Assembly: GCA_035281625.1 (NCBI GenBank)
Contig: DATEDO010000219.1
Span: 3,952 to 67,951, forward strand
Source of the DNA: Candidatus Methylomirabilota bacterium
GTDB lineage: Bacteria; Methylomirabilota; Methylomirabilia; Rokubacteriales; CSP1-6
Direction of reading: 5' to 3'
DNA length: 64,000 nt
Shown: positions 47,738 to 64,000 of the stretch, piece after piece
Layout: the number at the start of each line of letters is the position of its first letter
How positions within the stretch are numbered: position 1 is the stretch's first letter
Translations under genes and position numbers: made by a program
The notes under the pieces: generated by a model
Seen by the model: the letters and a program-made list of their open reading frames with translations, nothing else
Told to the model about the DNA's origin: nothing
Database searches by the model: none

Positions 47738-49168
47738 CTACCCTCCGGACGCGGGCTTGGGGGGAGTCGGCGCCACGGACTTGGCCGGCGCCGGTGCCCC
47801 CGGCGAGCCCGGCGCCGGCGCGGCGGCCGGGGCCGGTCCACCCGCGGGGACCGCGGGCCTGGCCATCGCGGCCCGCTCCGGCTTCACCTGCATGCCCGGC
47901 CGCACCTTCTGCATCCCTTCCACGATCACGCGCTCGCCGGCGGCGAGGCCCTTGGTCACGATGGTGGTGTCGTCGATGCGCTCGTCGAGGGCGACCGGCT
48001 TCAGCACGACCTTGTCGTCGGCGCCCACCGCGAACACGATCTTCGTTCCCTGCTGGTCCATCACCGCGCGCTGGGGCACCAGCACCGCGTTGGGACGCTC
48101 CTCCACCACGCCGCGCACGCGGGCGAACTGACCCGGGCGCACGACCTTCTCCGGGTTGGGGAAGGAGGCCCGGATGTTGATGGTGCCGGTCTTGACGTCG
48201 ACCGCGCGATCCACGAAGACGACGCGCCCCTTGTGCGGGAACGTGCGGCCATCCGCGAGGATCAGCGTGAGCGCGGGTCCCGAGCTCTGCACGCGACCCG
48301 ACGGATCCAGCTGGATCCGCGGCGCGAGCTTCAAGTAGTCGACTTCCGCGAGCGGGAAGTCGGCGTAGATGGGATCGATCGCGGACACCGTGGCGAGCAG
48401 GGTCGGCTCGCTCTTGCCCACGAGGTTGCCGCGGTCCACCTGTACCTTGCCCACCACGCCGGTCACGGGGGACTTCACCGTGGTGTAGTCCACGTTGAGC
48501 TGCGCCTGGGTCACTGCCGCCTTCGCCGAGTTGACGGCGGCCTCGCCGAGCTGGATCTGGGTGCGCTGCGCCAGCTCGGCGTCCTTGAGGGCCGCCTCCG
48601 CCGCCTCCACCCCCGCGATGGCGACCTGCTCCTGGGAGAGCGCGGTGTCGAGATCCTGCTGCGGAATGGCCCGCGCCTGGGCGAGCGGCCGGTAGCGGTT
48701 GACGTCCTGCTGGGCCTTGCCGAGATCGGCCTTGCGCTGGTTGAGCTGGGCCTTGACGCGATCGACCACCGAGGTGTCGCGCGCCCGGATCAGATCGGCC
48801 TGGGCCTTGGCGAGCTGGGCGCGCGCCGACTCGAGCTGGGCCGCGTACTCCTCGCGCTGAATGGTGAACAGCGTCTGGCCCTGCTTGACTTCGCTACCTT
48901 CCTGGAACAGCACCTCTTCCAGCACGCCGGCCACGCGCGCGCGGACTTCGATCGTGGGTACGCCCTCCGTCCGCGCGGTGTACTCGCGGACGATGGGCAC
49001 GGACCGCTGCACCACCTCCGCGACGATCACGGGGGTGGGGGGCGGCGGGGGAGCCGCCACCTTCGCGCTGTTGGCGCGGTCGCACGCGGCGGTGGTCGAG
49101 AGTATCAGGAGCGCGAACAGCCATGCCGCCGCGCGGCGCTCCCGCTCAAGCCGGTTGTGTTGTCTCAT
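47738..49168 (-). CDS. RND efflux periplasmic adaptor (membrane fusion protein, AcrA/HlyD family), lipoprotein
   Basis: 476 aa from the ATG at 49166-49168, with AGGAG 6 nt upstream. The signal peptide and lipobox are LFALLILSTTAAC. The coiled-coil and beta-barrel MFP domains are present, and the tail is Pro/Ala-rich. Confidence 0.85.
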   Translation of the reverse strand: MRQHNRLERERRAAAWLFALLILSTTAACDRANSAKVAAPPPPPTPVIVAEVVQRSVPIVREYTARTEGVPTIEVRARVAGVLEEVLFQEGSEVKQGQTLFTIQREEYAAQLESARAQLAKAQADLIRARDTSVVDRVKAQLNQRKADLGKAQQDVNRYRPLAQARAIPQQDLDTALSQEQVAIAGVEAAEAALKDAELAQRTQIQLGEAAVNSAKAAVTQAQLNVDYTTVKSPVTGVVGKVQVDRGNLVGKSEPTLLATVSAIDPIYADFPLAEVDYLKLAPRIQLDPSGRVQSSGPALTLILADGRTFPHKGRVVFVDRAVDVKTGTINIRASFPNPEKVVRPGQFARVRGVVEERPNAVLVPQRAVMDQQGTKIVFAVGADDKVVLKPVALDERIDDTTIVTKGLAAGERVIVEGMQKVRPGMQVKPERAAMARPAVPAGGPAPAAAPAPGSPGAPAPAKSVAPTPPKPASGG

Positions 49169-49194
49169 GCCCGCTCCTGCGTGATGGAATCTAT

Positions 49195-49235
49195 TGGCCG
49201 CCGTTGACAGTAAACCGCACCGAGGGCAGACGTCT
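49195..49235 (-). promoter_or_regulatory. Candidate sigma70-type promoter for the RND operon
   Basis: The minus strand reads GTTTAC-16nt-TAGATT, ending about 25 nt upstream of the MFP ATG. This is weak evidence in a high-GC genome. Confidence 0.25.
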
Positions 49236-49262
49236 ACCGGCTGGCCGAGGGTCGCATCGCGG

Positions 49263-49310
49263 GCCCGCCCCGCGCCATAGGACCTTGGTCCACCCGGCGG
49301 CGGGGCGGGC
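49263..49310. terminator. Compound GC-rich stem-loop downstream of the AAEx transporter gene
   Basis: The outer stem gcccgccccgc (49263-49273) pairs with gcggggcgggc (49300-49310). An inner perfect hairpin ggacc-tt-ggtcc sits at 49280-49291. It shares the 15-mer GGCGGGGCGGGCGGG with the 30154-30231 inverted repeat. Confidence 0.5.
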
Positions 49311-49331
49311 GGGTGGGTCTTCCGCGACGCG

Positions 49332-51014
49332 TCAGGCCAACAGGGCCACGATGACGGGCCCCCAGGCGGTGAGCAAAATGTTTCCCACGGCATAGGGCAC
49401 GGTATAGCCAAGGGCCGGCAGCTTGCTCTGGGACTCCTCCTGGACGGCCCGCAGAGCGGCGGTGATCGTCCCCGCTCCGGTACACGCGCCCAGGAGGATG
49501 AGGGGGTTCATCCGGAGCACGTATCGGCCGAAGAGAATGGCCGTGACATGGGGCAGGATGGCCACCACCAGGCCGACCAGGACCAGGCTCACGCCGGACT
49601 TCTGGAGGCCCGACACGAAGCTCGGACCGGCGCTGAGCCCCACCACGCCGATGAAGACGGTCAGGCCCACGGTGTCGAATACCCACATGGCCGGCTCGGG
49701 GATGCGCCCGAACGTGGGATGCACGGCGCGCAGCCAGCCGAAGACCAGGCCCATGATGAGGGCGCCGCCGCTGGCGGTGAGGGTGATGGGAAGCCCCCCG
49801 AGCGTGAGCGTGAGCAGGCCCACCAGGCCGCCCAGGAAGATCCCGAGGCCGACGAAGATCATGTCCGTGGTGATGGTCGGGCGGTCGGCGTATCCGACCT
49901 CGCGGGCGGCTCGCTCGACGTCGGCCTTGGCCCCGACCAGGTTCAGCACGTCACCGCGATCGACGCGGGTTGCCGCGGAGAACGGCATGGGCTGCCCCAC
50001 TCGCGTGAGCTGGCGCAGGAACACGCCGCGAGCGGCCTCCATGGTCGCCAGCTCCGCGATGCTCTTCCCGATGACGTCGCGCCTGGTCACGACGACGTCG
50101 AGCACCTCGACCGGGAAGTCGAGCAGCTCCCGGTCGTCCTCCTCCGGGCCGATCACCGTGCCGCGCGCCATCAGCGCCTCGGAGCGAGTCATCACCGCGA
50201 CCACGTCGTCCTTCTGAATGACGGTGTCGGGGCGGGCCTCGACGATGACTCCGGCATGCCGGACGCGCGAGATGAAGACGCGCACGTCCTTGGGGAAGGC
50301 CTCGATCTGGCCCACCGTCTTCCCGATCATGCGCTCGTTGGCGACGCGATAGGCGCGGACGCCGAAGTTCATGAATGCGGAGCGGACGCCGGGCTCGGGC
50401 TCCTCGGTCGCCCCGCTCTGGCTCTGGTACTTCCTCGCCTCTTCCTTCAAGTTCACGCGCATCAACCGGGGGCCGATGCTGGGAATGAACCAGACGATGA
50501 AGGCGGTGCCGATGAGGTAGGTGACCGCGTAGGCCACCGGGATGTTGTTGATGAGCGCGGTCCTCTGATCCTGAGGCAGATCGAGCCGGTTGATGGCATC
50601 CGCGGCCGTGCCGATGACGGTGGATTCCGTGAACGCCCCCGCGAGAAGCCCCGCGGCGGTGCCCACGTCGTAGGCGAAGAGCTTGGCCGCCGTGAACGCG
50701 GCGATCAGGCACGTGACGCAGAGCACCACGGTGAGCGCGAGCTGGGGCAGCGCGTCCTTTTTCAACCCGCGAAAGAATTGCGGCCCGACCTTGTAGCCGG
50801 TGGTGAAGAGGAAGAGATCGAAGAAGACGTTCTTCACGATGGCGGGGACTTTGATATCGAGCTGACCGATGATGACTCCCGCCAGCAGCGTGCCCACCAC
50901 GGTGCCCAGGCTGAACGAGCCGATCCTGATCCGTCCGATGGCGAAGCCCACCGCGAGGGTGAGGAAGATCGCCAGCTCCGGGTGCTCACGCAATGCGCTG
51001 ACGAAGTAATGCAT
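49332..51014 (-). CDS. AAEx-family transporter (AspT/YidE/YbjL type, two central TrkA-C domains)
   Basis: 560 aa. The N-terminus ([40 protein letters not shown]) and the duplicated 5+5 TM halves flanking a cytoplasmic regulatory domain match the AAEx family. Confidence 0.8.
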   Translation of the reverse strand: MHYFVSALREHPELAIFLTLAVGFAIGRIRIGSFSLGTVVGTLLAGVIIGQLDIKVPAIVKNVFFDLFLFTTGYKVGPQFFRGLKKDALPQLALTVVLCVTCLIAAFTAAKLFAYDVGTAAGLLAGAFTESTVIGTAADAINRLDLPQDQRTALINNIPVAYAVTYLIGTAFIVWFIPSIGPRLMRVNLKEEARKYQSQSGATEEPEPGVRSAFMNFGVRAYRVANERMIGKTVGQIEAFPKDVRVFISRVRHAGVIVEARPDTVIQKDDVVAVMTRSEALMARGTVIGPEEDDRELLDFPVEVLDVVVTRRDVIGKSIAELATMEAARGVFLRQLTRVGQPMPFSAATRVDRGDVLNLVGAKADVERAAREVGYADRPTITTDMIFVGLGIFLGGLVGLLTLTLGGLPITLTASGGALIMGLVFGWLRAVHPTFGRIPEPAMWVFDTVGLTVFIGVVGLSAGPSFVSGLQKSGVSLVLVGLVVAILPHVTAILFGRYVLRMNPLILLGACTGAGTITAALRAVQEESQSKLPALGYTVPYAVGNILLTAWGPVIVALLA

Positions 51015-51036
51015 GCCGCGCCTCCCGTCCGCCGGA

Positions 51037-52566
51037 TTAGCTCTTGGGCTTGGTCTCCGCCCCGCCCCCGGGAGCCGGGGGCGGAACGCCGAAGTAGCGC
51101 CCCGCGGCCGGATGGACCGGGATCGTGATGCCCCGTAGCCCGGTCCGCTTGGAGATCTTGGCGCCCTGGGCCGCGCCCCGGGAGACGTAGTCGGTGTTCT
51201 CGAATACCAGCTTCAGGACCACCGCGGCCTCGCCTTCCGGGACGTCGGCATGCGTCACGAGCAGGGCGGTCGCCGCGACCGTCGTCACGCCGTCCTGTTG
51301 TCCCGGGTAGGTGTTGGCTGGGACCATGAGGCGGACGAGGCCAGGGCTCTGGCTGACCAGGCCCGCCACCGTGTCCACGTCCAGCGAGAGCAGGCGGATC
51401 GGATGCCGGGTCGCCAGGCGCTGTATCTCACGGGCGGGCGCGCCTACCGTCGCGAAGAAAGCGTCCAGGCGGCCACCTCTGAGCCGGGCCGGGGCGTCCT
51501 CCAGCCCGTCCTCGCGGACCTCGGCGAGGTCCTTCGGGGCGAGCCCATGCGCGGCGAGCACGGCGAGGGCGTCGGCGCGGGTACCTGAGTTCAGCGGGCC
51601 CAGGGCGACGCGCTTGCCGCGGAGATCGGCGACGGTCCGTATCGGGGACTTGGCGGAGACGACGATGTGCAGGGGCTCGGGAAACAGGCTTCCCAGGGCC
51701 CGGAGAGAGGTCACGGCGCCGCCCTGGGCGAACGCGCCCTCGCCGGCATACGCCATCGCGGCCACGTCGGACTGGACGAGGGCGTAGTCGGCCTCCTTGC
51801 TGGCGATGAGCCGGACGTTCTCCAGGCTGCCGACGGTCTCGACGTTGCGGACCTTCACCGTCGCGTTGATCTGCTGCGCGCGGGCGACCACGGCCTCCGA
51901 GATTGGATGGTATTCGCCTTCCTCGGGCCCGCTGGCGAAGGTGTAGACGTGCTTGCGCCGCGCCCGGCGCGCCGTGATGGCCTTGAGCGCGTGATCCAGC
52001 TCCTCGGAGATCATCTGATCTTCCTGGTTCGGGACGCCCGGCGGGGGAATGTCGACCATGGCGGCGAGCCGATCGATGAGCTGCTTCGCCTTCGAGGCGG
52101 GAGCGGCGTCGCCGGGCGCCGACGGCCGTCTTACCCCGGCGGCGGCGCTCTCCACGCCTTGCCAGCGGTTCCCCACCCACTCGTAAGTGGAGCTCCCGTA
52201 CACCCGGATCTCCTCGCCCGGCTTGGTCTCGCCGGGCTTCACCCCGAAGATGCCCTTCTCGGTCGCGCCGAGCACCTGGGCCAGGGTCCCCGGGCTCAGG
52301 CCTTCCCAGTCACCGAAGTCGTAGGTCTGGGCGAGCTTCAGGGTGGCGTTGTAGTAGACGGCGAGCCGGCTCGCCCCGCTTTCCGCGTCGGGCAGGGGAG
52401 AGCTGCCCTGGCGCCGGAGCGCGACCAGCTCGAAGAGCCCCGGCTTGAAGCGCTGATCGAGCTTCGTCTTCACCTCGGTGCGCAGCGCGGTGGCGTCCGG
52501 CCCGCGCGAACAGCCCAGCGCCGCGACGGCAAGCGCCAGGAACAAGGCCAGCGCGAGACGCTTCAT
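51037..52566 (-). CDS. TAXI-family TRAP-type solute-binding lipoprotein with ~190-aa N-terminal extension (orphan: no DctQM nearby)
   Basis: 509 aa. The signal and lipobox are LALAVAALGCS. The C-terminal ~310 aa carry the TAXI signature, including IPVHPAAGRYF. There is no adjacent TRAP membrane component. Confidence 0.75.
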   Translation of the reverse strand: MKRLALALFLALAVAALGCSRGPDATALRTEVKTKLDQRFKPGLFELVALRRQGSSPLPDAESGASRLAVYYNATLKLAQTYDFGDWEGLSPGTLAQVLGATEKGIFGVKPGETKPGEEIRVYGSSTYEWVGNRWQGVESAAAGVRRPSAPGDAAPASKAKQLIDRLAAMVDIPPPGVPNQEDQMISEELDHALKAITARRARRKHVYTFASGPEEGEYHPISEAVVARAQQINATVKVRNVETVGSLENVRLIASKEADYALVQSDVAAMAYAGEGAFAQGGAVTSLRALGSLFPEPLHIVVSAKSPIRTVADLRGKRVALGPLNSGTRADALAVLAAHGLAPKDLAEVREDGLEDAPARLRGGRLDAFFATVGAPAREIQRLATRHPIRLLSLDVDTVAGLVSQSPGLVRLMVPANTYPGQQDGVTTVAATALLVTHADVPEGEAAVVLKLVFENTDYVSRGAAQGAKISKRTGLRGITIPVHPAAGRYFGVPPPAPGGGAETKPKS

Positions 52567-52569
52567 GGA

Positions 52570-53781
52570 TCAGAACCCGAACATCGGCAGGGCCAGGTAG
52601 GCCTGGATGATGAACGCGTTGGTGATGTCGATGAAGAAGGCGCCCACCATGGGCACGATGAGGAAGGCGAGTGGGGAGGGCCCGTGGCGGTCGGTCACCG
52701 ACTTCATGATGGCGAGCGCGCAGGCGGTGGACGACATGCCGAAGCCGATCTGCCCCGCGGACATGATGGCGGCGTCGTAGGTTTGTCCCATGACGCGGAA
52801 CGTCACCTGCGTGGCGTAGAGCGTGATGATGATGGTCTGAGTGGCCAGGATCACCAGCAGCGGGCCCGCCAGGTTCACCAGGTCGAGCAATCGCATGGTC
52901 ATGAGCGCCATGACCAGGAACATGGACAGCGCGACGTTGCCCACCACGTCCACGGTGGCGTCGCTCATCTGGAACAGACCGGTCGCCGTCGAGGCATTCC
53001 GGATCACGACCCCGAGCAGGAGCGAGAACACGAAGTCCGGCAGGATGAATCCGGTGCCCGCGACCAGGCCCACGAGCAGCTTCCCGCCGGCCAGGCAGAG
53101 CAGGATGACGAAGAGCGTGGTGAGCAAGGACTGCGAGGTGACGGAATCCGCCTCGGCGGCGTCGGGCGTCCCGTCGGCGTCCGCGTCGGCGCCGGGCGCC
53201 GGTCCCTGCAGCTTGTGCCGCCTGAGGAGGTATTCGGCCACGGGACCGCCCAGCACGGCGCCGATGACCAGGCCCGCGGTGGCGCACGCCATGGTGAGCT
53301 CCATGATCCCCTGGAGGTTCATGGTTTCGCCGAGCCGGCCCGCATAGGCCGCGCCCGTCCCGTGCCCGCCGACCAGGGTGATGGATCCTCCGAGGAGGCC
53401 CACCACGGGATGCATGTCCATGGCGCGCGCCGCGCTGATCCCGATGAGGTTCTGCACCACGATGAGCACCACGCTGATCCCGAGGAATATGGCCAGCCGC
53501 GGGCCACCCTTGACCAGCATCCGCGCGTCGGCGGCGAGGCCGACCGTCGTGAAGAACATGAGGAGCAGGACGTCGCGCAGCCCCAGGTTGAAGCCCAGCC
53601 GCACGTGCAGGACGCCGTCCACCACGGCGAGGAGTAGGGCCATCAGGCCGCCGCCGACGACGGGCGCGGGGATGTTCAACCGCGACAGCAGGGGCACGTG
53701 GGCCACGAGGAGGCGGCCCAGGAACAGCACCGCGATGGAGACCAGCAGCGTGGAGATGAGATCGAAGTCTATCGTCCGCAC
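52570..53781 (-). CDS. gltS: Sodium/glutamate symporter
   Basis: 403 aa, with the GltS family 10-TM pattern and conserved segments (GISVVLIVVQNLIGI ... GFGMSSTACALAIMKSVT). Confidence 0.8.
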   Translation of the reverse strand: MRTIDFDLISTLLVSIAVLFLGRLLVAHVPLLSRLNIPAPVVGGGLMALLLAVVDGVLHVRLGFNLGLRDVLLLMFFTTVGLAADARMLVKGGPRLAIFLGISVVLIVVQNLIGISAARAMDMHPVVGLLGGSITLVGGHGTGAAYAGRLGETMNLQGIMELTMACATAGLVIGAVLGGPVAEYLLRRHKLQGPAPGADADADGTPDAAEADSVTSQSLLTTLFVILLCLAGGKLLVGLVAGTGFILPDFVFSLLLGVVIRNASTATGLFQMSDATVDVVGNVALSMFLVMALMTMRLLDLVNLAGPLLVILATQTIIITLYATQVTFRVMGQTYDAAIMSAGQIGFGMSSTACALAIMKSVTDRHGPSPLAFLIVPMVGAFFIDITNAFIIQAYLALPMFGF

Positions 53782-53869
53782 GCGGCGTCTCCGGGCCCCA
53801 TGCTGTCGCGATTCATCGGCCGATCATACGTCCGACCCCCGTCTTTCCTGTCACCTATTGGATCAGAGG

Positions 53870-55480
53870 CTAGGCCTTCGGGGCCTTCTTCGAGGCCTCG
53901 TAGGCGTCGCGGTAGCCGCGGGCGATGGCGCGCACGCCGCGTCCGATGTCGTCGTACACGTCGTCGCCGAGATTGGCGAGGGAGACGCGCAGGGACCAGT
54001 CCGGCGCCTCGAAGCCGCCGCCGTTCAAGAGCACGATCCCGTGGGTCTCGGCGAGCCGGAACGCGAGGTCCAGGGGATGGACGTTCTTCTTGAGATAAGC
54101 GACCGCATCCTCGCCGATGTTCTTCCGGGCCCAGAACTCGAAATCGATGAGCCCGTAGTAGGCATTGAACAGCGGGTTGGGGGCGACCTCCAGGCCCAGC
54201 CCGTCGAGGAGCGCGCGGGCCCGTCGGTGCACGATCTCCATGCAGGCCTTCTGATAGCGCTTCTCCGCGTCCATCAGCTCGGACAGGGAGAACATCGTCA
54301 TCATGACCTGCTGCGGGAGCGAGAGGCCGGCCGTGTGGTTCAGGCCGACGTCGCGGCTGTCCGCCACGATGCGATCGATGAACTTGATCTTCCTCGGCTC
54401 GAGGGTGAGCGCGCCGTAGCGCTTGTCGAGCGCCTTCAGCGTGTCGCCGGTGTGCTTGGCGATCATCGTGTCGTAGATGTTGTCCTCGTGCAGCGCGATG
54501 ACGCCCAGCCGCCAGCCCGTGCAGCCGAAATACTTCGAGTAGGAGTAGACGCCGAGAGTGTTCTGCGGCAGCTCGCCCAGCAGTGACCGGAAGCCGGGCA
54601 CGAAGGTCCCGTACACGTCGTCGGTGAGGAGCATGAGGTCGGGGCGCTTGGTCTTCACCAGCGTCGCGATCTTGCCGATGGACTCCTTGCTGAGCGCCAC
54701 CCCGGTGGGATTGCCGGGATTGACGAGGAAGAAGGCCTTGACCTTCGGGTCCTCGAGCTTCTTCAGCTCCGCGTCGGTGGGCTGGAAGCGGTTCTCCTGC
54801 GGCGAGGCGATATTGACCACGTTCAGCGCGTAGTCCTCGAGGTGCGTCATCTCGAGGTACGGCGTGAAGATGGGCGTGCCGAGGGCGATGGTGTCGCCCG
54901 GCAGGAGCAGGCGATTGGCCTTGAGCGACTTGAACAGGTAGCACATCGCCGCGGTGCCGCCTTCCACCGCGTAGAGGTCGAACTTTCCGGGGGGCCGCGG
55001 ATTGCCGCACACCGCCCACTGGATGTACTCGTGCACGATGCGCTCGTTGTGCACGAGCATCCGGTCGGGCACGGGGTAGTTGTCGCCGATGATGGAGTCC
55101 ACGATCTCGTGGACGAAGGCGTCCGGCTCGAACTTGAACTCCTTCACCGCGAACGGAACCATCTTCTTGAGGAAGTCCGCGCCGAGCATGTCGGAGTGCT
55201 TCGCGAGCCAGGCGTCCAGGCGCCCCGCGATGCCCTGGGCCGCGGGCATGCCTCCGACCCCCGCGGGATGCTCCATCACGCGCCGGCTCTCGGTCAACGC
55301 GAACTGGCCCAGCAGGAAGAACGCGTCGCGCGGGTCGGTGGCGATCCAGTTCGGGTTGCCGCGGCCCGCGTTGAGGAAGGGAGTCTGCGTGGTCCTGGAC
55401 GTCTTCTTGGCGAGCTTCGCCAGCTCGTCCTTGATCTCGAACGGCCCCATCTTGTCGAACTGCGTCAGGTCGATGGCCAT
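53870..55480 (-). CDS. asdA: Aspartate 4-decarboxylase (L-aspartate beta-decarboxylase, aminotransferase fold-I)
   Basis: 536 aa from the ATG at 55478-55480, with AGGAG 7 nt upstream. It aligns along its full length with characterized AsdA: FEIKDELAKLA, LNAGRGNPNW, YAVEGGTAAMCYLF, the PLP-Lys region YSYSKYFGCTGWRLG, and RIVADSRDVGLNHTAGLSLPQQ. Confidence 0.85.
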   Translation of the reverse strand: MAIDLTQFDKMGPFEIKDELAKLAKKTSRTTQTPFLNAGRGNPNWIATDPRDAFFLLGQFALTESRRVMEHPAGVGGMPAAQGIAGRLDAWLAKHSDMLGADFLKKMVPFAVKEFKFEPDAFVHEIVDSIIGDNYPVPDRMLVHNERIVHEYIQWAVCGNPRPPGKFDLYAVEGGTAAMCYLFKSLKANRLLLPGDTIALGTPIFTPYLEMTHLEDYALNVVNIASPQENRFQPTDAELKKLEDPKVKAFFLVNPGNPTGVALSKESIGKIATLVKTKRPDLMLLTDDVYGTFVPGFRSLLGELPQNTLGVYSYSKYFGCTGWRLGVIALHEDNIYDTMIAKHTGDTLKALDKRYGALTLEPRKIKFIDRIVADSRDVGLNHTAGLSLPQQVMMTMFSLSELMDAEKRYQKACMEIVHRRARALLDGLGLEVAPNPLFNAYYGLIDFEFWARKNIGEDAVAYLKKNVHPLDLAFRLAETHGIVLLNGGGFEAPDWSLRVSLANLGDDVYDDIGRGVRAIARGYRDAYEASKKAPKA

Positions 55481-55512
55481 GGTGTTCTCCTGAGTGGCGT
55501 GATGGCTCGTCG

Positions 55513-57207
55513 TCACGACAAGAGCATGATGAGGACCATGCCCCAGATCGTGAGCAGCGTGTTGCCGACCGCATAGGTGACGGTATAGCCCAGGGCGGGA
55601 ATCTGGCTTTGCGCCCGGTCGCAGACGAGACCGAGGGACGCCGTGGTCGTGCGCGCGCCGGACAGGATGCCGAGGAGGATGGCGTCGTGGAAGCGGAAGA
55701 TGTACTTGCCGACGAAGAGCCCGAGGATCAACGGCACGGTGGTGGCGACCGCGCCCCAGAGGAAGAGGCCGATGCCCTGGGTCTTCAACCCATCGACGAA
55801 GCCGGGGCCCGCCGAGATGCCGACGATCGCGATGAAGATGTTGAGGCCCACGGAGTTCATGAACCAGACGGTCTGGGACGGAATGCGCCCGAAGAACGGC
55901 TTGGTCGAGCGCAGCCAGCCGAAGACGAGGCCGGCGATGAGCGCGCCGCCCGCGGTCGAGAGCGTCAGGGGCACGCCCGCCACCTTGAGCACCAGCGCCC
56001 CGACCAGCGCGCCGAGCGTGACGGCGACGCCGACGAACGCCATGTCGGCCACGTCGGACGGCCGGTCGGGCACGCCGATCACCTTGGCGGCGGCGGACGT
56101 GTCCTGGGTGCGGCCGACCAGGGTGAGGATGTCCCCACGGTAGATCTTGGTATTGGGCAGGATCGGGATGGACGTCGCGACGGCGCCGCGGACGATCTTC
56201 GACAGGAACACGCTGCGCGCCACGGGCAGCGTGGCCAGCTCGGCGAGGGTCTTGCCGTCGACCTCCTTGCTCGTCACGTAGACGTCCACGCCCTCGACCG
56301 GGACGTTCAGCAGCTCGGGGTCGTCCACCTCCTGCGCGGCCTCGCCGATCACCTTCACGAGGACCTCTCGCGCCCCGGCGACGGCGACGATGTCGCCTTC
56401 GCGGATCACGGTGTCGGCCGCCGCATCCTCGATGGTCCCGTTGGTCCGGCGGATGCGCTCGACGAAGACGCGGGCATCCGGCACCATGGCTTCCGCCTCG
56501 ACGGCGCGGAGGCCGATGGCCTTGCCGCCCGGCCGTACCTTGAACGCCCGCAGCTCCCACTTGTGCCACGCCGACCCGGCGCCACCCATGGCGGCGGTGC
56601 CGCCCTGCATCCTCTCGTACTCCTTGCAGGCGGCGACGAGGTCCATGCGAACGAGGGCGGGACAGACGAGGGCGATCACGATGGCCGAGCCCACCGTACC
56701 GAACATGTAGGTCACGGCGTAGGCGATGGGCATGTTGTCGAGCAGGCCCTTCACCTGGTCGGGGGGGAGGCCGAGCCGGTTGATGGCGTCGGTGGAGAGC
56801 CCCATCGCCGCGGAGATGGTCTGGGAGCCGGAGTAGAGGCCCGCGGCATACCCCAGGTCATAACCCGCCGCCTTGGCGATGGCGACGGGAACCAGCAGGC
56901 TGAACACGCACTGAACCACGGAGAAGATCGCCTGCGGCAGGCCGTCCTTCGCCACCCCTCTGACGAACTGGGGGCCCACCCCGTAGCCCACCGCGAAGAG
57001 GAACATGAGGAAGGCGAAGGCCTTCAGCGGCTGATTGATGGTGATCCCGAGCTGGCCGATGATGACGCCGGCGAGTAGGGTCGCGGTCACCGAGCCGAGG
57101 CCGATGCCCTTGAAGGTGAACTTGCCGAAGTAGTAGCCGAGACCGATGGCGAGGAAGATCGCGATCTCGGGGTACTGACGGAATGTCGCGGCGAACCACT
57201 CAAGCAT
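55513..57207 (-). CDS. aspT: Aspartate:alanine antiporter-type AAEx transporter
   Basis: 564 aa. The AspT/YidE family N-terminus is [41 protein letters not shown]. It sits immediately upstream of asdA, and its start overlaps the decarboxylase stop by 8 nt. Confidence 0.75.
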
Positions 57208-59974
57208 GGTTCCCTCCGTTCTTCTTCCGGGCGGCGAGCACGTCCGGCTTCAGGAGCTTGAGCCCCTGTGAGGCCTGGTAGCCGTGGATCTCCTTCACGT
57301 CCAGCTTCCGCATGAACGTGATGGTCTCCCCGGTGATCACCTGGCCGGGGACCATGATGGGGAAGCCCGGGGGGTAGGGGATCACGAAGTTGGCGGACAC
57401 CATCTCGGGCCCACTCTTCAGCCGCTTGTCGATGTCCGGGCTGGCGAGCTTCACGAACTCGCAGTTGGCCTCGTCGTAGGCCATGAAGAAGGCCGGACGC
57501 ACGTGGCCCTCGTTGCTCGCGCCCTTCGGGTTGTCGCGGAACGCGTCCTGGAAGCGGCTGAAGTTCGGCAGGTCGGGCACGTCGGTCATGAGCGACTTCA
57601 CCCGCGCCGCGAAGGTGGCCTGCTCCGCGGGGCCGCCCTGAGCCAGGCGCTGCTCGATCTCGCGCGAGAGGTCGGCCAGCACCTTGATGAGAAGGGCGGC
57701 GTCGCTCCGCGTGTTGTTGATGTTGGTCTGGACGAGGATGCTGTTGCGCGAGGTCTTGTTGATCTGGATGTCGAAGCGCTCCGCCAGCATGCCCTTGAAC
57801 TGGGTGCCGTCGAAGCCGGCCGAGCCGCAGATGATGGTGAGGCGCGTGGGGTCGAGGGCGAACTCGTCTTCGTCCCAGGCTTCGATGGCCTGCCGCCAGG
57901 TGGAGTGGGGCGGCCCGTAGTCCTTGATGCCGGAGGCGCGGAACTCCGCCGGCACCATCTCCTCGGGCGTGGCCACGTGGAAGTACTTGGAGATGAGCGG
58001 GTGGGTGTTGATCTCGCGTCGGAGGCGCAGGGCGAGCTCGGTCATCTTCATCGTGAGCTCGTACCCCTCCAGCTCCATCTGGCGCCGCGCCACGTCGAGG
58101 GAGGCGATGATCTGGAGATTCGGCGAGGTGGAGGTGTGGGTGAGGAACGCCTCCTGGAACGGCCCCTCCACGTGGTGGAAGTCCTCGTCCCAGACGAGGA
58201 TCATCGAGCCCTGCCGGAGCGCGGACATCGACTTGTGGGTGGAGTGGGTCTGATAGACGCGGATGCGCGCCTTGTCCGGGTCGGGCAGGAGGTGCGTGTC
58301 GAGGAGCGAGCGGTCATTGGGATCGAGCGTCCCGTGCTTCGCGGCGAACGCCTTGTAGCGCTCGCGGTAGGCGGGGTCGCGATAGCGCGCCGTGAGCGTG
58401 GCGGCGGCGCCCATGGCGGTGCGCCGCCGATGGAAGGCGTTGAAGCGAGCGAAGCCGAACCACGCCTCGTCCCAGAGGAAGATGAGGTCCGGCTTGATGG
58501 CCAGGCATTCCTCCATCACCCGGGTGGGGTTGTACATGTGGCCGTCGAAGGTGCAGTTGGTGAGGTCCACCGCCCGCACGCGCGAAAGGGTGCCCTCGGC
58601 CTTGCAGGCGAGGAGCGCCGCCTTGATGGTCCTGAGCGGCACCGCGCCGTACATCGAGTACTGCGTCAGCGGGTAGGCCTCGACGTAGTAGGGTTGGGCA
58701 CCCGCCAGCACGAAGCCGTAGTGGTGCGACTTGTGGCAGTTGCGGTCGACGATCACGATGTCGCCGGGCCGGCACACCGCCTGCACCACGATCTTGTTCG
58801 AGGTCGAGGTGCCGTTGGTGGCGAGATACGCGCGCTTGGCGCCGAAGGCGCGGGCGGCGAGATCCTGGGCCTTCTTGATGTTGCCGGTGGGCTCGAGCAG
58901 GCTGTCGAGGCCGCCGGTGGTGGCGGAGGACTCGGCCAGGAAGAGATTGGTCCCGTAGAACTGGGCCATGTCGCGGATCCAGTTCGAGCGGAATACGGAC
59001 TTGCCGCGCGCGATGGGGAGCGCGTGGAAGGTGCCGATGGGCCGCTGCGCGTACTTCTTCAAGTTGCTGAAGTAGGGCGTCTCGAAGCGGTCGCTCACGC
59101 CGTCGAGGATGGAGAGGTGGATCTCCATCAGCTCCTCGACCTGGTGGAAGACCCGCCGGATGGGCGCCACCTCGGCGCTGCCGGCCAGGTGCTCGACGGC
59201 GCGGTCGGTGAGGAGGTAGAGGTCCAGCTCCGGACGGTAGCCCTTGATGGCTCGCGCGAGGGCGCCGGCGAGGGCGCCCGGCTCGATGCTCGCGGGGTCC
59301 ACGCGGAGGTTCCGCAGGAGGGTATCGCGCAGCGCCGGCATCTCGTGGCGGGAGCGGAACTGGAACCCGTCGTAGATCACCACGGCCTGCACATTGGTGT
59401 TGAACATGGCGCCGATCGCCGCGTCCTCGAAGCTGCCGACCTGCACGACCTCGTAGACGAAGGAGTCTTCCGGACGGCGCAGCCGGCGCAGATCGGCGCG
59501 GGACCGCTCCCAGCGGCTCGGGTCGTTGGGCGTGACGATGAGGACCTCGAAGTAGGGCTTGTGCCCGTTGCCCGGCTGTACGTCGGGGGGCAGCACGTCC
59601 GCCACCCGGCTCTCTCCTTCCTCGAGCGGGTCCCACGCCTTGGTGTCATGACGGTAGGCGCCGGTGACCAGGGCCGTCGAGATCTTGCCCACGAGCCGGG
59701 CGAACACGGCGGCGTTCCGCTCCTTGAGCGCCTCCGCCACCGTCCCCATGAGGTGGGGGCCGGGGTAGGCCCAGTAGTCCTCCAGCGCGGACAGCTCGGT
59801 GAGCAGCCGGGAGGCGTCCGGGTGCGCGGACTCCGCCGATGATCCGCGCGATACCGCCGCTTCCCACGCTCGGCCGATGGCGCCGAGCTCGCGCCAGCGG
59901 TCGATCCGCGCCTCCGCCGCCGAGAAGAAATCCTGAAAATCCTGCGCCTTGCGCTCGCCTTCCGCCTTGGCCAT
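57200..59974 (-). CDS. Orn/Lys/Arg decarboxylase family (biodegradative-type, fold-I PLP decarboxylase) with extended N-terminus
   Basis: 924 aa from the ATG at 59972-59974, with GGAGG upstream. It aligns with AdiA/CadA-type enzymes: [33 protein letters not shown], the PLP-Lys in [16 protein letters not shown], and [18 protein letters not shown]. It is about 170 aa longer at the N-terminus than AdiA. Confidence 0.85.
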
Positions 59975-60008
59975 GGCTAGATAACCTCCCCGGCTTCCCA
60001 ACACGAGA

Positions 60009-61340
60009 TCACAGAAGATCTCGCTCCCAGTTGATGATGAAGCGCACCTGATACCCGGTGGCGCGCGCGTCTTGCCGATCGAGAATCGCGCCGCGCGCCC
60101 GGAACCACAGCCCCTGCAGGAAGGCCGGCCACTTGAAGGGCGGCCGGTAGTCGACGGTGAGATCGTATTCGCCCTGGTCCGGCGCCGGCCTCCCGTTCGA
60201 CGGGTTGATGGCGTCCTTGCCCCACGCCATGTTCATGGTGGCGCTGAGCCCCTTCGTGAGCACGCTCGAGAAGTCGTAGGCCGCGCCGATCAGGAACGCC
60301 TTCTCGTTGGCGCGGTCGAAGTCCTGGTCGATCAGGGAGAGATAGGACGGAGAGCTGCCCCAGGGCTTCTGGATGTTGTTCCCCTTCGCGGTGAGGGTGA
60401 ACGCGCCGGTCAGGGTGAGATCGCCGATGACGAGCTGCGCCCGACCGCCGCCGTGCTGCGTCGCCCAGTGCCGGCCGTCGATCGTGGGACCCAGCAGGGC
60501 ATCCCCCACTCCCCGCTGATCCGTGAACTGGGCGCCGAGGCGCATCTTCATCGCCTGGTTCAGCGGGATCTCGTAGGCCACCTCGGTGTAGAAGGTGTTG
60601 ATGGTGTCGACGCCGTAGGAGTCGTTGATGTCGACCCGGAGCCCCGGGAGGGGGGTGAGGCGGACGCCGCCGAACCCGGCGCCCTCGTTGGTGTCCCGCG
60701 CCCCCGCCTGCTCGGACATGCTGATGAACTCATCCGCGTTCCGCGGCTTGATCTTCCAGAGAAAGCCGCCGAGATACTCCACCCACGCCACCTTGCCTCC
60801 CACGGTCACCCCCTGGAAGGTATTGGGCGTCATGCGGTTGTCGGCGGGGTTGATGTAGCCCTGGTTCACCTGCTGGCGGTAGCCTTTGACGATGACGTAG
60901 TCCTCGTACTTCAGCGCGCCCCAGGCCTCGCCCGGCACGTAGTAGCTTTCCTGACTGGGCTTGAGAAGGAGGGTGCCGTCGCGGTCCTCCGGCCCGTAGA
61001 GCTTCAGCGAGCCGTAGAGCGTGGCGCCCATCGCGAAGGTGTCCGCGAGCCAGCCCGACTGATACGTGATCCACCCGCCGGTGGCGAGCGCTTCGTTCTT
61101 CGAATCGTCGGTGTTGTTACGGTTGAAGTAGTAGATGCGGAAATGCACCTTGAGATCGGTGTCTTTGATGAACTTCGGCAGGGCGCTGGCCTGCAGCGCC
61201 TGCTGCAGGGGGTCGAAGAGCCGCTCGATCGGAGCCTCGTGGTGGGGTGGCGGCGGCGGCGCGTCCTCCGCGGACGCGAGGCCGGGCCACAGCGCGAGGG
61301 CCATCCCTGCCAACGCAATCACGGACCGTCTCATCGGCAA
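60009..61340 (-). CDS. OprD-family outer-membrane porin
   Basis: 443 aa. The signal peptide is MPMRRSVIALAGMALALWPGLASA. It has the OprD-like beta-barrel pattern with alternating aromatic/Gly strands and a C-terminal aromatic (…FIINWERDLL). GGGAGGG lies upstream of the ATG at 61340. Confidence 0.7.
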   Translation of the reverse strand: MPMRRSVIALAGMALALWPGLASAEDAPPPPPHHEAPIERLFDPLQQALQASALPKFIKDTDLKVHFRIYYFNRNNTDDSKNEALATGGWITYQSGWLADTFAMGATLYGSLKLYGPEDRDGTLLLKPSQESYYVPGEAWGALKYEDYVIVKGYRQQVNQGYINPADNRMTPNTFQGVTVGGKVAWVEYLGGFLWKIKPRNADEFISMSEQAGARDTNEGAGFGGVRLTPLPGLRVDINDSYGVDTINTFYTEVAYEIPLNQAMKMRLGAQFTDQRGVGDALLGPTIDGRHWATQHGGGRAQLVIGDLTLTGAFTLTAKGNNIQKPWGSSPSYLSLIDQDFDRANEKAFLIGAAYDFSSVLTKGLSATMNMAWGKDAINPSNGRPAPDQGEYDLTVDYRPPFKWPAFLQGLWFRARGAILDRQDARATGYQVRFIINWERDLL

Positions 61341-61473
61341 ACTCCCTCCCCAGTGCGACGACGTCTTGCGTGCGGGGAGAATCTACCCTCGGCCCGACGC
61401 ACCCCTCCATGGGACGAAGGTCCCATGGGGTTGGGACGGAGGCGGGCTTCGTCGCGGGGGCGGCGCGATCGGC

Positions 61474-62658
61474 CTACAGCACGACCTGGAGGAGGCGCTG
61501 CATGAGCTCCTCCAGAGAAATCATGGTGAGGAGGAGCGGGGCCACGGGAAGGAGCGTGATCACCGCCAGCTGCACCACGGTCTGCCTGGTGAAGGGCACC
61601 ATGCTCATGCTGCGGATGACCTCGAAGCTATTGGCCAGGTCGGCCAGGGACTGGATGTCGGCGCTGCCGACCAGCGGCTCGGCCGGGGGCGTCCCGCGTA
61701 GCCACTTGGAGTCGAACTCCCGGACGTAGCGGCCGGCGAGGGTGCCGTACTCGCGCAGGCCCACGCGCCGCGCGGTGGCGAGGTGAGGCGTGAAGAAGAG
61801 CAGAGGCCCCACCACGATCAGGAGCAGGAAGAGGACCACCGCGGCCAGCTCCAGCTTGAAATCCGTCAAGACGGCGCTCTGAAAGAAGATCCGGTTGGCG
61901 AGGAAGCCCGAGAGGAGCACGCCGTGGGCGGCCAGGAGCGGTGCGAAGGCCACGGCGGTATTGGTGAGGAAGCCGAGCCCCCCGGCGCGGTCGGGATGGG
62001 TGGGCACGAGCTTCAAGCGGCACCGCGCGACCTTCGAGAGGAAGCGGATCCAGATGAAGATGCGGAAGTACCAGCGGAAGAGGAGGAATTGGAAGATCGG
62101 CACGCTCACATAGGCGAGCCACCATCCGGCGGGGGTGAGGCGGTAGCCGCCCTCGCCCGGCAGGGAATACCAGGTCGAGGCGTGCAGGATGGCGTAGTGG
62201 GGCCAGAGGAACACGATGCCCACGTACACGAAGGCGATGAGGAGCAGCTCCGCCACGATCGAGTTCCGCAGACGCAGGGCCGAGGCCACCGCCGCGTCGA
62301 AGCGCGCCCGGGACTCCTCCGCGATGAGGTCGCGCTCGAGGAATTGCCGGATCAGGTGCCGCATGCGCTGATGCACCACCAGCTCGGCGACGATGAGGAG
62401 CGGGACGGCCAGGAGCAGTCGCGTGTGCACCTCGACGTCCATGACGAACGGCACCTGCACCGCCGACCCCCACGCGCGTCCCGCCACGACCGACAGGAGG
62501 AAAGGGGGAAGCCAGGCGAAAAGCGCGATGACGACGATGCGGCGCCGCAGGTGCTCGAGCGCGTCACCGGAGAGGTGCGCGCGCCGGACGAGCTGATAGA
62601 GGGGCCCGCCCAGCACGAGCGAGAAATCGTAGGGATCCGACGCCTCCGCGGTGGTCAT
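61474..62658 (-). CDS. Hypothetical polytopic membrane protein (394 aa)
   Basis: The ATG at 62656-62658 overlaps the GH13 stop (ATGA). It has 8-10 hydrophobic helices rich in Trp, Phe and Arg. No family is recognized, and the ORF-track N-terminal 90 codons are rejected. Confidence 0.55.
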   Translation of the reverse strand: MTTAEASDPYDFSLVLGGPLYQLVRRAHLSGDALEHLRRRIVVIALFAWLPPFLLSVVAGRAWGSAVQVPFVMDVEVHTRLLLAVPLLIVAELVVHQRMRHLIRQFLERDLIAEESRARFDAAVASALRLRNSIVAELLLIAFVYVGIVFLWPHYAILHASTWYSLPGEGGYRLTPAGWWLAYVSVPIFQFLLFRWYFRIFIWIRFLSKVARCRLKLVPTHPDRAGGLGFLTNTAVAFAPLLAAHGVLLSGFLANRIFFQSAVLTDFKLELAAVVLFLLLIVVGPLLFFTPHLATARRVGLREYGTLAGRYVREFDSKWLRGTPPAEPLVGSADIQSLADLANSFEVIRSMSMVPFTRQTVVQLAVITLLPVAPLLLTMISLEELMQRLLQVVL

Positions 62659-64000
62659 CGGGCGGTCACCTCGAACACGTGGTATCCCCAGGCCGGCAGG
62701 TCCAGGTAGAGTCCGCGGGACACGAGCTCGTGGCCGTCGCGATCGTACCGGGCGGGGCCGAGGAGATCCTGGAGCCGGACGGATCGTCCGGCGAGATCGG
62801 GATACGGCAAGCGGACATAGCACTGGGCCTGATGCCCCGCGTAGTTGACGGCGGCGAGCCGCCGCTGGCCGCTCGCCCCGTCCCAGGCCGAGACGATGAA
62901 GCAGTCCCAGGTCCAGTTGCCGTCCCACGCGGGGGAGGCTTCGAGCAGGCGCCAGTCGCCTTCGCGCACGACGGGCTGGGCCAGGACGGTGAGCAGCCTC
63001 AGATAGAACTTGTGCCGGGCGTCGTCCAGGGGCTCCTGCGGGGCCCGGACGAGATGCGGCGAGATGCGCTTTCGGCGGCCCTCGAGCTGGCCCTGATGGA
63101 AGAACCGCAGTCCCGGGGACAGGAACGTGACCACCGCCGCCGCCTCGTGCATGCCGGGGGAGAAGGTGGCGGCGGCCCGTGGCTCATCGTGGTTCTCCAG
63201 GAAGCGCGCGAGCCGGGCCTGGTAGTCGAGCCCGGCGTGGAGATGCTCGCGTGCCGGACGGGCGTGCCCGTCGCGGAGGCGGTCGTAGAGCCGCTTGTCG
63301 TACGCGTAGTCGAAGCCCCGCTGGAGCATCTCCCACTCGAGATCCCAGTAGACCTCGGCCATGAAGCGGAAGCCGGGCAGCCGCTCGCGCACCCGCGCGG
63401 TGGCCTGGGGCCAGAACGAGACCGCGCGCCGCCCCCACGTCCGCTCGAACACGTCCGGCAGGACCAGCATGGCCATGTCGCAGCGCACCCCGTCGCACTG
63501 CTGGGAGATCTTCAGGAGCTCGCCGGTCATCGCCTCCGCGGTGGCGGGATTGCTGTAGTCGAGCTGCAGCGTGTCCGGCCACCCCGAGAAGTACGGGTCG
63601 CGGCCGTGGGCGAGGAGGAGCTCGCCGTGCGTCCGTTTGATCCAGACGTAGTTCTGCGGCGCGCGGGCCTGGTCCATCTCGGTCCCGGCCACGTAGTGGG
63701 CGGGATGGCCCTCGACCCAGGGATGGTCCAGGCCGGTATGGTTGGGGACGAAGTCGAGCATCAGCCGGAGGCCGCGGCCGCGGAGGCGCTCCCGCAGCCG
63801 GGCGAGCGCCCCGTCGCCGCCCAGGGCGGCGTGCACCGTGTAGCCGGTGATGGCGAATCCGGATCCTCCGATGTCCTCCTCGCGGAGGTCGGGCAGCGTG
63901 GCCTCGAACTCGTGTCGCCACTCGGGATTGCTCCGCGAGACCTGCTGGCCCGCCTCGCCCGTCTGCCACACGCTGAGCAGCCACACCCAGTCGAAGCCCA
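62655..64000 (-). CDS. Glycoside hydrolase family 13 (alpha-amylase superfamily) enzyme, 5'-truncated by window end
   Basis: The GH13 conserved regions I, II and IV are present (DFVPNH, GVRCDMA, FLENHD). The ORF is open to the window edge, and the N-terminal barrel strands are missing, so the gene continues beyond 64000. Confidence 0.75.
   Translation of the reverse strand, partial: GFDWVWLLSVWQTGEAGQQVSRSNPEWRHEFEATLPDLREEDIGGSGFAITGYTVHAALGGDGALARLRERLRGRGLRLMLDFVPNHTGLDHPWVEGHPAHYVAGTEMDQARAPQNYVWIKRTHGELLLAHGRDPYFSGWPDTLQLDYSNPATAEAMTGELLKISQQCDGVRCDMAMLVLPDVFERTWGRRAVSFWPQATARVRERLPGFRFMAEVYWDLEWEMLQRGFDYAYDKRLYDRLRDGHARPAREHLHAGLDYQARLARFLENHDEPRAAATFSPGMHEAAAVVTFLSPGLRFFHQGQLEGRRKRISPHLVRAPQEPLDDARHKFYLRLLTVLAQPVVREGDWRLLEASPAWDGNWTWDCFIVSAWDGASGQRRLAAVNYAGHQAQCYVRLPYPDLAGRSVRLQDLLGPARYDRDGHELVSRGLYLDLPAWGYHVFEVTAR

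Follow-up and report, generated by a model that had tools for sequence, protein, structure and literature searches.

A gene cluster with two decarboxylases and two exchangers

The 64,000-nt stretch of DNA from a Candidatus Methylomirabilota bacterium that was analyzed here (the window) contains seven adjoining genes, among them those for an aspartate 4-decarboxylase, AsdA, and for an AAEx-family exchanger, AspT1. With moderate confidence, we interpret this gene cluster as two semi-independent modules for acidic amino acids, each composed of a decarboxylase and a transporter, one for the conversion of aspartate to alanine and the other probably for the conversion of glutamate to γ-aminobutyric acid (GABA), which are fused behind a porin gene. 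The enzyme of the second module would be a large pyridoxal 5'-phosphate (PLP) decarboxylase, termed bigDC below. In the order of transcription, the seven genes, all of which are located on the minus strand, are (coordinates refer to the whole window):

60009..61334, minus strand: OprD-family outer-membrane porin, 441 aa, first gene of the putative operon (Pfam PF03573, E=5e-24)
57200..59974, minus strand: bigDC, long-form four-domain PLP decarboxylase of the Rv2531c type, 924 aa (match to 9N0O/9N0N)
55513..57207, minus strand: AspT1, AAEx-family exchanger, 564 aa, ATG start (TIGR03802, two Asp-Al_Ex repeats)
53870..55480, minus strand: AsdA, predicted aspartate 4-decarboxylase, 536 aa, ATG start (NF006755, TIGR03801, 2ZY2)
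52570..53781, minus strand: GltS sodium/glutamate symporter, 403 aa (TIGR00210, 414.8 bits, cut-off 310.75)
51037..52566, minus strand: TAXI-family solute-binding lipoprotein, 509 aa (TIGR02122, 254 bits, cut-off 84.35, residues 201-492 only)
49332..51014, minus strand: AspT2, second AAEx-family exchanger, 560 aa, last gene of the putative operon (TIGR03802, 676.4 bits)

The GC content of the window is 70%, and mechanical lists of open reading frames (ORFs) are therefore full of spurious frames. The genes were resolved by an analysis of the GC content at third codon positions (GC3) and by an independent gene prediction for the source contig (ENA ERZ27257124 k141_553899, 110 kb), which recovered AsdA and AspT1 at the same positions. 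The gaps between the seven genes are 34, −8, 32, 88, 3, and 22 nt. The stop codon of bigDC and the start codon of AspT1 are thus part of an 8 nt overlap, with a GGAGG motif upstream of the AspT1 start, and the bigDC gene is translationally coupled to the exchanger gene. The 32 nt spacer between AspT1 and AsdA carries an AGGAG motif in front of the AsdA ATG. The bigDC ATG at position 59974 also has a GGAGG motif upstream, and the GTG start at position 60004 proposed by the ORF tool is probably too long. Judged by spacing and overlap, the seven genes are likely to be co-transcribed as a single operon.

On the strength of its sequence, AsdA is classified as an aspartate 4-decarboxylase (EC 4.1.1.12). 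It scored 761.4 bits against NF006755 (cut-off 321) and 753.6 bits against TIGR03801 (cut-off 435.1), with residues 5-532 of 536 covered, and it could be aligned end-to-end with the solved aspartate β-decarboxylases, of which 2ZY2 was the best match (E=3e-148, 47% identity over 531 residues). In the latter alignment, the arginine of the AGRGNPN motif (the equivalent of Arg37) and the lysine of the S-x-S-K motif are conserved. We take Arg37 (numbering of the Pseudomonas enzyme) to be the mark that separates AsdA from aminotransferases, and the lysine to be the residue that binds PLP. A preliminary description of this DNA had claimed a full-length AsdA match with an AspT-family gene directly upstream (53870-57207), and the equivalog scores of the hidden Markov models, the 2ZY2 alignment, and the independent gene call bear this out, well past anything expected by chance. 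It had left out AspT2, GltS, the TAXI protein, and the OprD porin.

The two exchangers have the same Pfam architecture, that is, two Asp-Al_Ex repeats around TrkA_C domains. AspT1 scored 645.3 bits against TIGR03802 (cut-off 546.95; residues 3-563 of 564), and AspT2 scored even higher than AspT1. The seed of this model was presumably chosen on the basis of encoding next to asdA. AspT1 and AspT2 are 46% identical to each other and 28% and 32% identical, respectively, to AspT of Tetragenococcus halophilus, with which AspT2 forms one full-length alignment. Both retain the residues T130, S132, Y167, L431, and T496, which contact aspartate in the T. halophilus structure, and both have a threonine in place of S498. 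AspT1 is predicted to be an L-aspartate:L-alanine antiporter and the partner of AsdA. AspT2, which is separated from AsdA by GltS and TAXI, is a candidate partner of bigDC.

The bigDC protein carries the database labels 'arginine decarboxylase' (JGI) or plain 'decarboxylase', and its Pfam domain is OKR_DC_1. However, its scores are below the equivalog cut-offs of all lysine, arginine, and ornithine decarboxylases (LdcC, 190.2 vs. 968 bits; AdiA, 172 vs. 1167 bits; SpeF, 129.7 vs. 1310 bits). Instead, the solved structure closest to it is that of Rv2531c of Mycobacterium tuberculosis (PDB 9N0O/9N0N, E=8e-226), and residues 32-924 of bigDC match residues 25-902 of the 9N0N chain of 947 residues (E=9e-226). 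This alignment covers all four domains, and the full-length identity is 44%. The extra N-terminal domain of Rv2531c was described by cryo-electron microscopy in 2025 (PMC12329521), and a review of January 2026 still listed the activity of the protein as unknown. According to a PNAS manuscript of August 2026, Rv2531c does not act on lysine, ornithine, or arginine, decarboxylates L-glutamate, accounts for most of the GABA synthesis in vivo, and serves the GABA shunt and not acid resistance; the manuscript also names Arg576 as the proposed ligand of the γ-carboxylate (PMC13506015). Neither of the two papers mentions an antiporter, an operon, or the gene neighborhood (PMC12329521, PMC13506015).

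The pocket residues H405, K406, K570 (the PLP lysine), R576, T606, and N731 of Rv2531c are identical in the bigDC protein of the window and in 50 of 50 full-length orthologues, while R718 is replaced by a lysine in the window protein as well as in all 50 orthologues. At the position of Arg576, the aligned member of the family with basic substrates has a serine (AAFSQ vs. SALRQ). From its sequence, bigDC is predicted to be a decarboxylase of an acidic amino acid, probably glutamate.

More distant long-form homologues (at most 50% identity) from Roseobacter, Rhizobium leguminosarum, and Roseateles have no AAEx neighbor. Two of these homologues, in Roseobacter ponti p1 (L084, 7882-14247) and in R. 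leguminosarum pRL9b2 (L085, 9052-15163), are 42-50% identical to bigDC and share a context of a biotin-carboxylase/ATP-grasp protein, a C45 peptidase, and an ABC transporter of the peptide type, with gabT nearby in Roseobacter. The R. leguminosarum homologue has a threonine for Lys406. This context looks like that of another role for the long-form decarboxylase family.

Conservation of the gene neighborhoods

The linkage of the two decarboxylases was analyzed from both sides. Centered on AsdA, 80 genome loci were compared, 75 of which had enough room to score an upstream AAEx gene and 69 enough room to score bigDC. An AAEx gene was present in 74 of the 80 loci, and it was located directly upstream of AsdA in 58 of 75. 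Of 62 exchangers of the AspT1 type, 54 were located at this position. A bigDC gene was found in 52 of 69 loci, mostly in the order bigDC, AAEx, AsdA. Obviously, bigDC does not lie beside AsdA by chance, and it is a conserved partner. The preliminary description had regarded the second decarboxylase as nested with the pair. The gene at 57200-59974 is indeed real, but it is an operon partner of the Rv2531c type with its own conservation, rather than a merely nested gene.

Centered on bigDC, metagenome contigs were scanned, and the 50 loci in which the contig continued for 4 kb or more on the downstream side of bigDC were kept. An AAEx gene was present in 45 of these loci, in 42 of them (84%) directly downstream of bigDC, whereas AsdA was present in only 23. 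Twenty-two loci had AAEx without AsdA, three had GltS and TAXI directly after bigDC and no AAEx (L116 was checked by Pfam), and two had none of AAEx, AsdA, or GltS/TAXI. The identity of the gene directly after bigDC differed strongly between loci with and without AsdA:

AspT1 type: 17 of 23 loci with AsdA, 1 of 27 loci without AsdA
divergent AAEx (29-35% identity): 0 of 23 with AsdA, 19 of 27 without AsdA
GltS: 0 of 23 with AsdA, 3 of 27 without AsdA
other: 6 of 23 with AsdA, 4 of 27 without AsdA

For the AspT1 type against the presence of AsdA, Fisher's test gave p=1.5e-7, although the loci are not phylogenetically independent. The AspT1 type thus belongs with AsdA, for which this distribution is a stronger ground than adjacency, and the pairing of AspT1 with AsdA asserted in the preliminary description is therefore supported. 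On the other hand, bigDC forms a unit of its own with a carrier for acidic amino acids, and the window contains both units in fused form. Loci in Phyllobacterium, Binatia, and Rhodobacter comprise bigDC, AAEx, and a porin, without AsdA. Exchangers of the AspT2 type accompany bigDC in the absence of AsdA in Phyllobacterium (plasmid pPT1018), in Binatia, and in the loci L110 and L126; among them are the Phyllobacterium exchanger and one of the two Binatia exchangers. The Binatia loci also contain a Glu/Asp-type SDF transporter.

In Rokubacteria, the canonical form of the module is OprD-bigDC-AspT1-AsdA-AspT2 (L091, L094-96, L105-107), from which the window departs by the insertion of GltS and TAXI between AsdA and AspT2. 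GltS and TAXI also follow the module in L002, L003, L101, and L144, and they are located directly after bigDC, without AAEx or AsdA, in L115, L116, L121, and L133. OprD or another porin (DcaP, 'porin') recurs beside the module in related loci. The TAXI protein of the window has a lipobox signal (LGC) and an N-terminal extension of about 190 aa that matches no family, and no TRAP membrane subunit is encoded near its gene. A long-form TAXI gene also follows GltS in L116 (11123-12637). Because TAXI pairs with GltS in several loci, the arrangement suggests that this is an orphan TAXI protein that serves a non-TRAP carrier.

Two of the cultured carriers of the module are Ensifer canadensis, with the order aspT-decarboxylase-aspT-porin-asdA on pT173d, and Rhizobium sp. 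T136, with the order decarboxylase-aspT-aspD on pT136c (L086). In the latter, a carbonic anhydrase gene lies upstream of the module and a gene for the periplasmic acid-stress chaperone HdeA/HdeB downstream (4971-5873 and 15879-16172). Apart from these two neighbors, nothing hints directly at an acid-stress setting. Anion transporters of the SulP and DASS types were repeatedly encoded in the vicinity of the module (13 and 12 loci, respectively). Clusters of gabT/gabD or alanine dehydrogenase genes were not enriched among the module neighbors. Among the conserved neighbors of bigDC, there was no APC-type antiporter for basic amino acids and amines.

To assess the spread of AsdA, species-representative genomes were scanned with six exact peptide patterns, so that the counts are lower bounds. 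At least 396 close relatives were present. The best 80 of these 396 (78-93% identity) stem, as counted from the record titles, from about 39 Acidobacteriota, 28 Alphaproteobacteria, nine Rokubacteria, two Chloroflexota, and one Planctomycetota. The nearest relatives (92-93% identity) belong to metagenome-assembled genomes (MAGs) of Rokubacteria/Methylomirabilota, and cultured Bradyrhizobium, Rhizobium, and Methylobacterium are among the Alphaproteobacteria of the best 80. Among plasmids, AsdA was present in 71 records of the collection from more than 20 genera, including Enterococcus, Lactiplantibacillus, Azospirillum, Acinetobacter, Sinorhizobium, and Bacteroides, and the plasmid-borne genes are routinely annotated beside aspT. 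The annotated order is aspT before asdA in Ruegeria, Azospirillum, and Acinetobacter baumannii, as in the window, and asdA before aspT in Lactiplantibacillus plantarum. The AsdA-AspT pair is thus common, and automatic annotation already recognizes it; the copy in the window is its Rokubacterial instance. In the preliminary description, the pair had been considered notable as a system known mainly from Tetragenococcus and a few proteobacteria. This argument from rarity fails, because close AsdA relatives are widespread (at least 396 genomes, five phyla among the best 80, and 71 plasmids) and routinely annotated with aspT.

A Rokubacterial MAG (L004) shares the flanks of the window (glycosidase and RND pump, 80-90% identity), but has only three core genes of the module, and thus the content of the module varies between fixed flanks. 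Since AsdA is about 80% identical across five phyla and the content of the module differs between identical flanks, horizontal spread of the module is suggested. A compositional trace of recent transfer was not found in the window, as the GC3 values of the operon genes (0.90-0.95) equal those of the flanking genes.

Proposed mechanism and alternative explanations

In T. halophilus, the exchange of singly negatively charged aspartate for uncharged alanine is combined with proton-consuming β-decarboxylation (PMC12462496). By analogy, an aspartate cycle most likely runs in the organism of the window. External L-aspartate, with one net negative charge, would pass the outer membrane via the porin, and AspT1 would swap it for internal L-alanine, which carries no net charge. 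AsdA would strip the beta-carboxyl group, using one cytoplasmic proton, and each turn of the cycle would move one negative charge inward and remove one proton. Carried over from T. halophilus, this direction and stoichiometry of transport would imply a benefit for the proton-motive force or for pH homeostasis. In the second limb, bigDC would turn glutamate into GABA, and this is the weakest step of the model. It is proposed because of the data on Rv2531c, the conservation of Arg576, and the proximity of GltS and of an SDF-type carrier. Glutamate might be supplied by GltS/TAXI, by exchange through AspT2 or another AAEx protein, or by both. Aspartate or its sulfinated analogues are possible substrates of bigDC as well.

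Several observations weigh against a two-limb system of this kind. A K0.5 of 509 mM was reported for Rv2531c with glutamate, and the same paper makes no mention of aspartate (PMC13506015). In addition, the distance of bigDC to Rv2531c (42-45% identity) equals that to clades whose genes have quite different neighbors. AspT1 shares only 28% identity with the sole characterized AspT, and the position of Arg76 is occupied by glycine in AspT1, by glycine, alanine, or serine in 62 of 62 proteins of the AspT1 type, and by lysine in seven of seven proteins of the AspT2 type. Rhodobacter sp. CZR27 and L102 carry an exchanger of the AspT1 type or with the AspT1 signature, with no AsdA nearby. In the AsdA-centered loci, the presence of a second exchanger was not related to bigDC (25/41 vs. 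6/13, p=0.52). Because this test was not significant, the argument for a pairing of bigDC with an exchanger rests on the bigDC-centered sample. Furthermore, in 15 of 41 AsdA loci with bigDC, the AspT1 type was the sole exchanger within 8-10 kb, and therefore one exchanger may serve both enzymes. The taxonomic labels of the MAGs may include mis-binned contigs. Lastly, scans of the operon region revealed no promoter, terminator, or regulator, which is why the operon status was deduced from spacing.

AsdA also desulfinates cysteine sulfinate. The two decarboxylases might share AspT1, with bigDC acting not on glutamate but on aspartate, yielding beta-alanine, or on cysteine sulfinate or cysteate, so that one imported class of compounds would enter two routes. 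Such sharing would fit the overlap of the bigDC stop with the AspT1 start and the 15 loci with AspT1 as the sole exchanger, as well as the high K0.5 for glutamate in a study that makes no mention of aspartate. It would also agree with the recurrence of SulP and DASS near the module, although both are present in a minority of the loci only. According to a preprint, the products of a canonical glutamate decarboxylase are GABA, hypotaurine, taurine, and beta-alanine (bioRxiv 10.1101/2024.03.02.583032). However, bigDC also occurs with GltS and TAXI and neither AAEx nor AsdA, its neighbor is a divergent AAEx type in 19 of the 27 loci lacking AsdA, and the sole experimental data on the family point to glutamate and GABA in vivo. 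We regard this alternative as a whole as unlikely, but as worth keeping in mind. We also consider it improbable, to a slightly greater degree, that the cluster serves the ordinary catabolism of acidic amino acids from soil organic matter or the assimilation of their nitrogen (aspartate via alanine to pyruvate, glutamate via GABA to succinate), with AAEx proteins as carriers for uptake or overflow and no meaningful role in proton-motive force or acid resistance. The function of Rv2531c in the GABA shunt instead of acid resistance is in line with catabolism, and so are the bigDC-GltS-TAXI units, which use a symporter instead of an exchanger, and the neighbors in the window, which encode glycosidases, RND efflux proteins, and functions of general metabolism and do not include an acid-stress regulator. 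Against this stand the AAEx gene directly beside bigDC in 84% of the loci, which is the classic layout of precursor/product antiport, the lack of enrichment of gabT/gabD and alanine dehydrogenase clusters near the module, and the HdeA/HdeB gene that adjoins it in Rhizobium sp. T136.

Two further explanations have very little probability in our view. The label 'arginine decarboxylase' and the Pfam family OKR_DC_1 would be explained if bigDC were an arginine, lysine, or ornithine decarboxylase that is merely co-located with the aspartate system in an acid-stress island, but all scores for such enzymes fall below the equivalog cut-offs, the nearest characterized relative is inactive on the three basic substrates, an arginine is present at position 576 where the enzymes for basic substrates have a serine, and the conserved neighbors are carriers for anions and acidic amino acids, with no APC-type antiporter seen. 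Equally little speaks for AspT1 as a SucE-like dicarboxylate exporter that is functionally unrelated to AsdA. The AAEx family does include exporters of succinate and glutamate, and AspT1 has a low identity to the characterized AspT and lacks Arg76. Yet AspT1 is above the equivalog cut-off of TIGR03802, it has kept four of the four 'highly conserved' residues in contact with aspartate, its type is tightly adjacent to AsdA on the same strand across phyla, and it tracks AsdA statistically.

Two semi-independent modules behind a porin are thus our preferred reading of the window. We tentatively extend it, at somewhat less than even probability, to a more general proposal. An Rv2531c-type decarboxylase together with AAEx, with or without AsdA, and behind a dedicated porin, might form a widespread, horizontally shared, and hitherto undescribed system of precursor/product antiport in soil bacteria, which would be a functional counterpart of GadB/GadC whose parts are unrelated to theirs. 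Under this proposal, Glu:GABA or Asp:beta-alanine antiport would be the function of some 'AspT' paralogues, and the window would represent the two-limb form for both acidic amino acids, used for pH homeostasis or for supplementary proton-motive force.

Exchanger subtypes and surroundings of the operon

According to a title cited in PMC9527358, Arg76 in transmembrane helix 3 of T. halophilus AspT is implicated in substrate transport. This residue is an uncertain mark of the family. Proteins of the AspT1 type have an invariant arginine at position 495, in hairpin 2. In the alignment of L001-L083, the residues at positions 76/495 (T. halophilus numbering) are R/D in T. halophilus AspT, K/G in the AspT2 type, and R/M in group 2. 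Apparently, the charge is swapped between the AAEx subtypes, in that an arginine or lysine at position 76 goes without an arginine at position 495, and the AspT1 type has the reverse. The divergent AAEx protein that adjoins bigDC in Binatia has an arginine at both positions.

The presumed borders of the operon are formed by two non-coding features:

61335..61473, minus strand: gap of 139 nt in front of the porin gene, the largest on the upstream side, presumed to hold the promoter
49263..49316, no strand assigned: GC-rich inverted repeats, possible operon end, 16-70 nt beyond the AspT2 stop codon

A scan of positions 48800-63000 for promoters and terminators yielded no promoter-like site and no more terminator-like sites than expected from shuffled sequences, and such a scan is uninformative for this phylum. 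An Rfam search of positions 47000-64000 at E<=0.1 had no match, and hence revealed no riboswitch or leader. The inverted repeats beyond AspT2 consist of one repeat with perfect arms of 11 nt and one with arms of 12 nt and 83% complementarity, followed by a gap of 163 nt before the gene for the RND adaptor; they were not flagged by the terminator scan because they lack a T tract. The region from 61335 to 61473 contains no sigma-70-like match and is not conserved in relatives. It includes a perfect 9+9 palindrome, CCATGGGAC gaag GTCCCATGG, at positions 61407-61428, some 75-95 nt before the porin start codon, which is present as a single copy in the window (chance expectation 0.04). As a conserved operator, CCATGGGAC-N4-GTCCCATGG was rejected, since it is missing from all related loci and the upstream regions of the relatives do not align.

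The gene next to the operon on its upstream side (61474-62658, minus strand) encodes a predicted multi-pass membrane protein of 394 aa with no match in Pfam or NCBIfam. The operon is followed by an RND efflux operon (adaptor, permease, and outer-membrane factor; 44570-49168, minus strand) that is syntenic with the Rokubacterial MAG L004. Elsewhere in the window, and not adjoining the operon, are the genes for a 1345-aa FG-GAP repeat protein (15617-19654, minus strand), a gamma-glutamyltranspeptidase (21638-23431, minus strand), and a MocR/GabR-type regulator with GntR and aminotransferase domains (26163-27644, plus strand). A DUF3300/DUF2950 gene pair is a recurrent neighbor of the module, at a distance of a few kb, in about 20 related loci from Rokubacteria, Binatia, and Acidobacteriota (neighbor clusters 12 and 14), for example in L091 (1239-3598), L092 (6154-7185), L094 (1544-3870), and L116 (1027-2646).

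The decarboxylase-aspT-porin unit of Phyllobacterium sp. T1018 (L087, 1-6942) is located beside an ectoine-utilization cluster. The 'gabD/gabT-like' genes next to this unit were considered as support for GABA and rejected, as they lie within the ectoine cluster (eutBC, a MocR-type regulator, and an Lrp regulator); presumably, they are rather doeC/doeD. The end product of ectoine utilization is aspartate, and the proximity of the two clusters may be a coincidence or a supply route.

Relation to known systems and significance

The closest known counterpart of the first limb is the asp operon of T. halophilus, which encodes the same two protein families, AspD/AsdA and AspT, and follows the same logic of electrogenic exchange and decarboxylation (PMC12462496). 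The window differs from it in the low identity of the transporters (28% and 32%) and in the glycine of AspT1 in place of Arg76. In addition, its host is Gram-negative, and its operon includes a porin, a second decarboxylase, a second exchanger, GltS, and TAXI. The order aspT before asdA also differs from the Firmicute order of L. plantarum. It is shared with the plasmid pairs of A. baumannii, Azospirillum brasilense, and Ruegeria (annotated by NCBI PGAP), which are likewise encoded on the same strand, separated by a short spacer, and recognized by the same equivalog models. However, these proteobacterial loci consist of the two genes only, with no adjoining Rv2531c-type decarboxylase, second exchanger, or porin, and their AsdA proteins are 47-64% identical to that of the window.

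With Rv2531c, the 'KOR' decarboxylase that was re-assigned to L-glutamate, bigDC shares the four-domain architecture, 44% identity, and the PLP-binding and proposed pocket residues. It differs by the lysine in place of Arg718 and by its gene context, that is, the overlap with an AAEx gene and the usual linkage to AsdA, GltS, or porins. The combination of a proton-consuming cytoplasmic decarboxylase with a precursor/product antiporter is reminiscent of GadA/B-GadC, AdiA-AdiC, and CadA-CadB. GadB is a group II decarboxylase, and GadC, AdiC, and CadB are carriers of the APC family, which is unrelated to AAEx. Moreover, in contrast to these enterobacterial acid-resistance systems, a regulator of the GadE/CadC type was not seen at the locus in the window. 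SucE1 of Corynebacterium glutamicum and other AAEx exporters belong to the same family as AspT1 and AspT2 (TC 2.A.81), but they export dicarboxylates or glutamate and are unlinked to decarboxylase genes, whereas AspT1 and AspT2 pass the AspT-specific model. In the literature searched, which was of limited coverage, we found no report of a decarboxylase-AAEx-AsdA linkage. As far as this literature goes, the arrangement of the operon is new, while the types of its parts are known (AsdA/AspT, an Rv2531c-type decarboxylase, AAEx paralogues, GltS, and a porin).

By itself, the AsdA-AspT pair is a routine, automatically annotated system in one more phylum, and the value of the locus lies in its context. 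Neighborhoods from several phyla independently back the recent and surprising view that the substrates of long-form 'Lys/Orn/Arg' decarboxylases are acidic amino acids, and they provide this family with a physiological setting of porin, exchanger, and symporter that is not discussed in the papers on Rv2531c. Uncharacterized subtypes of AAEx become candidate Glu:GABA antiporters, and cultured carriers of the module exist in Ensifer canadensis T173, Rhizobium sp. T136, and Phyllobacterium sp. T1018. If the model holds, amino-acid-dependent acid resistance or energy conservation in abundant lineages of acid soils (Terriglobales, relatives of Bradyrhizobium, and Rokubacteria) would rest on a module that is masked by the labels 'arginine decarboxylase' and duplicated 'aspT'.

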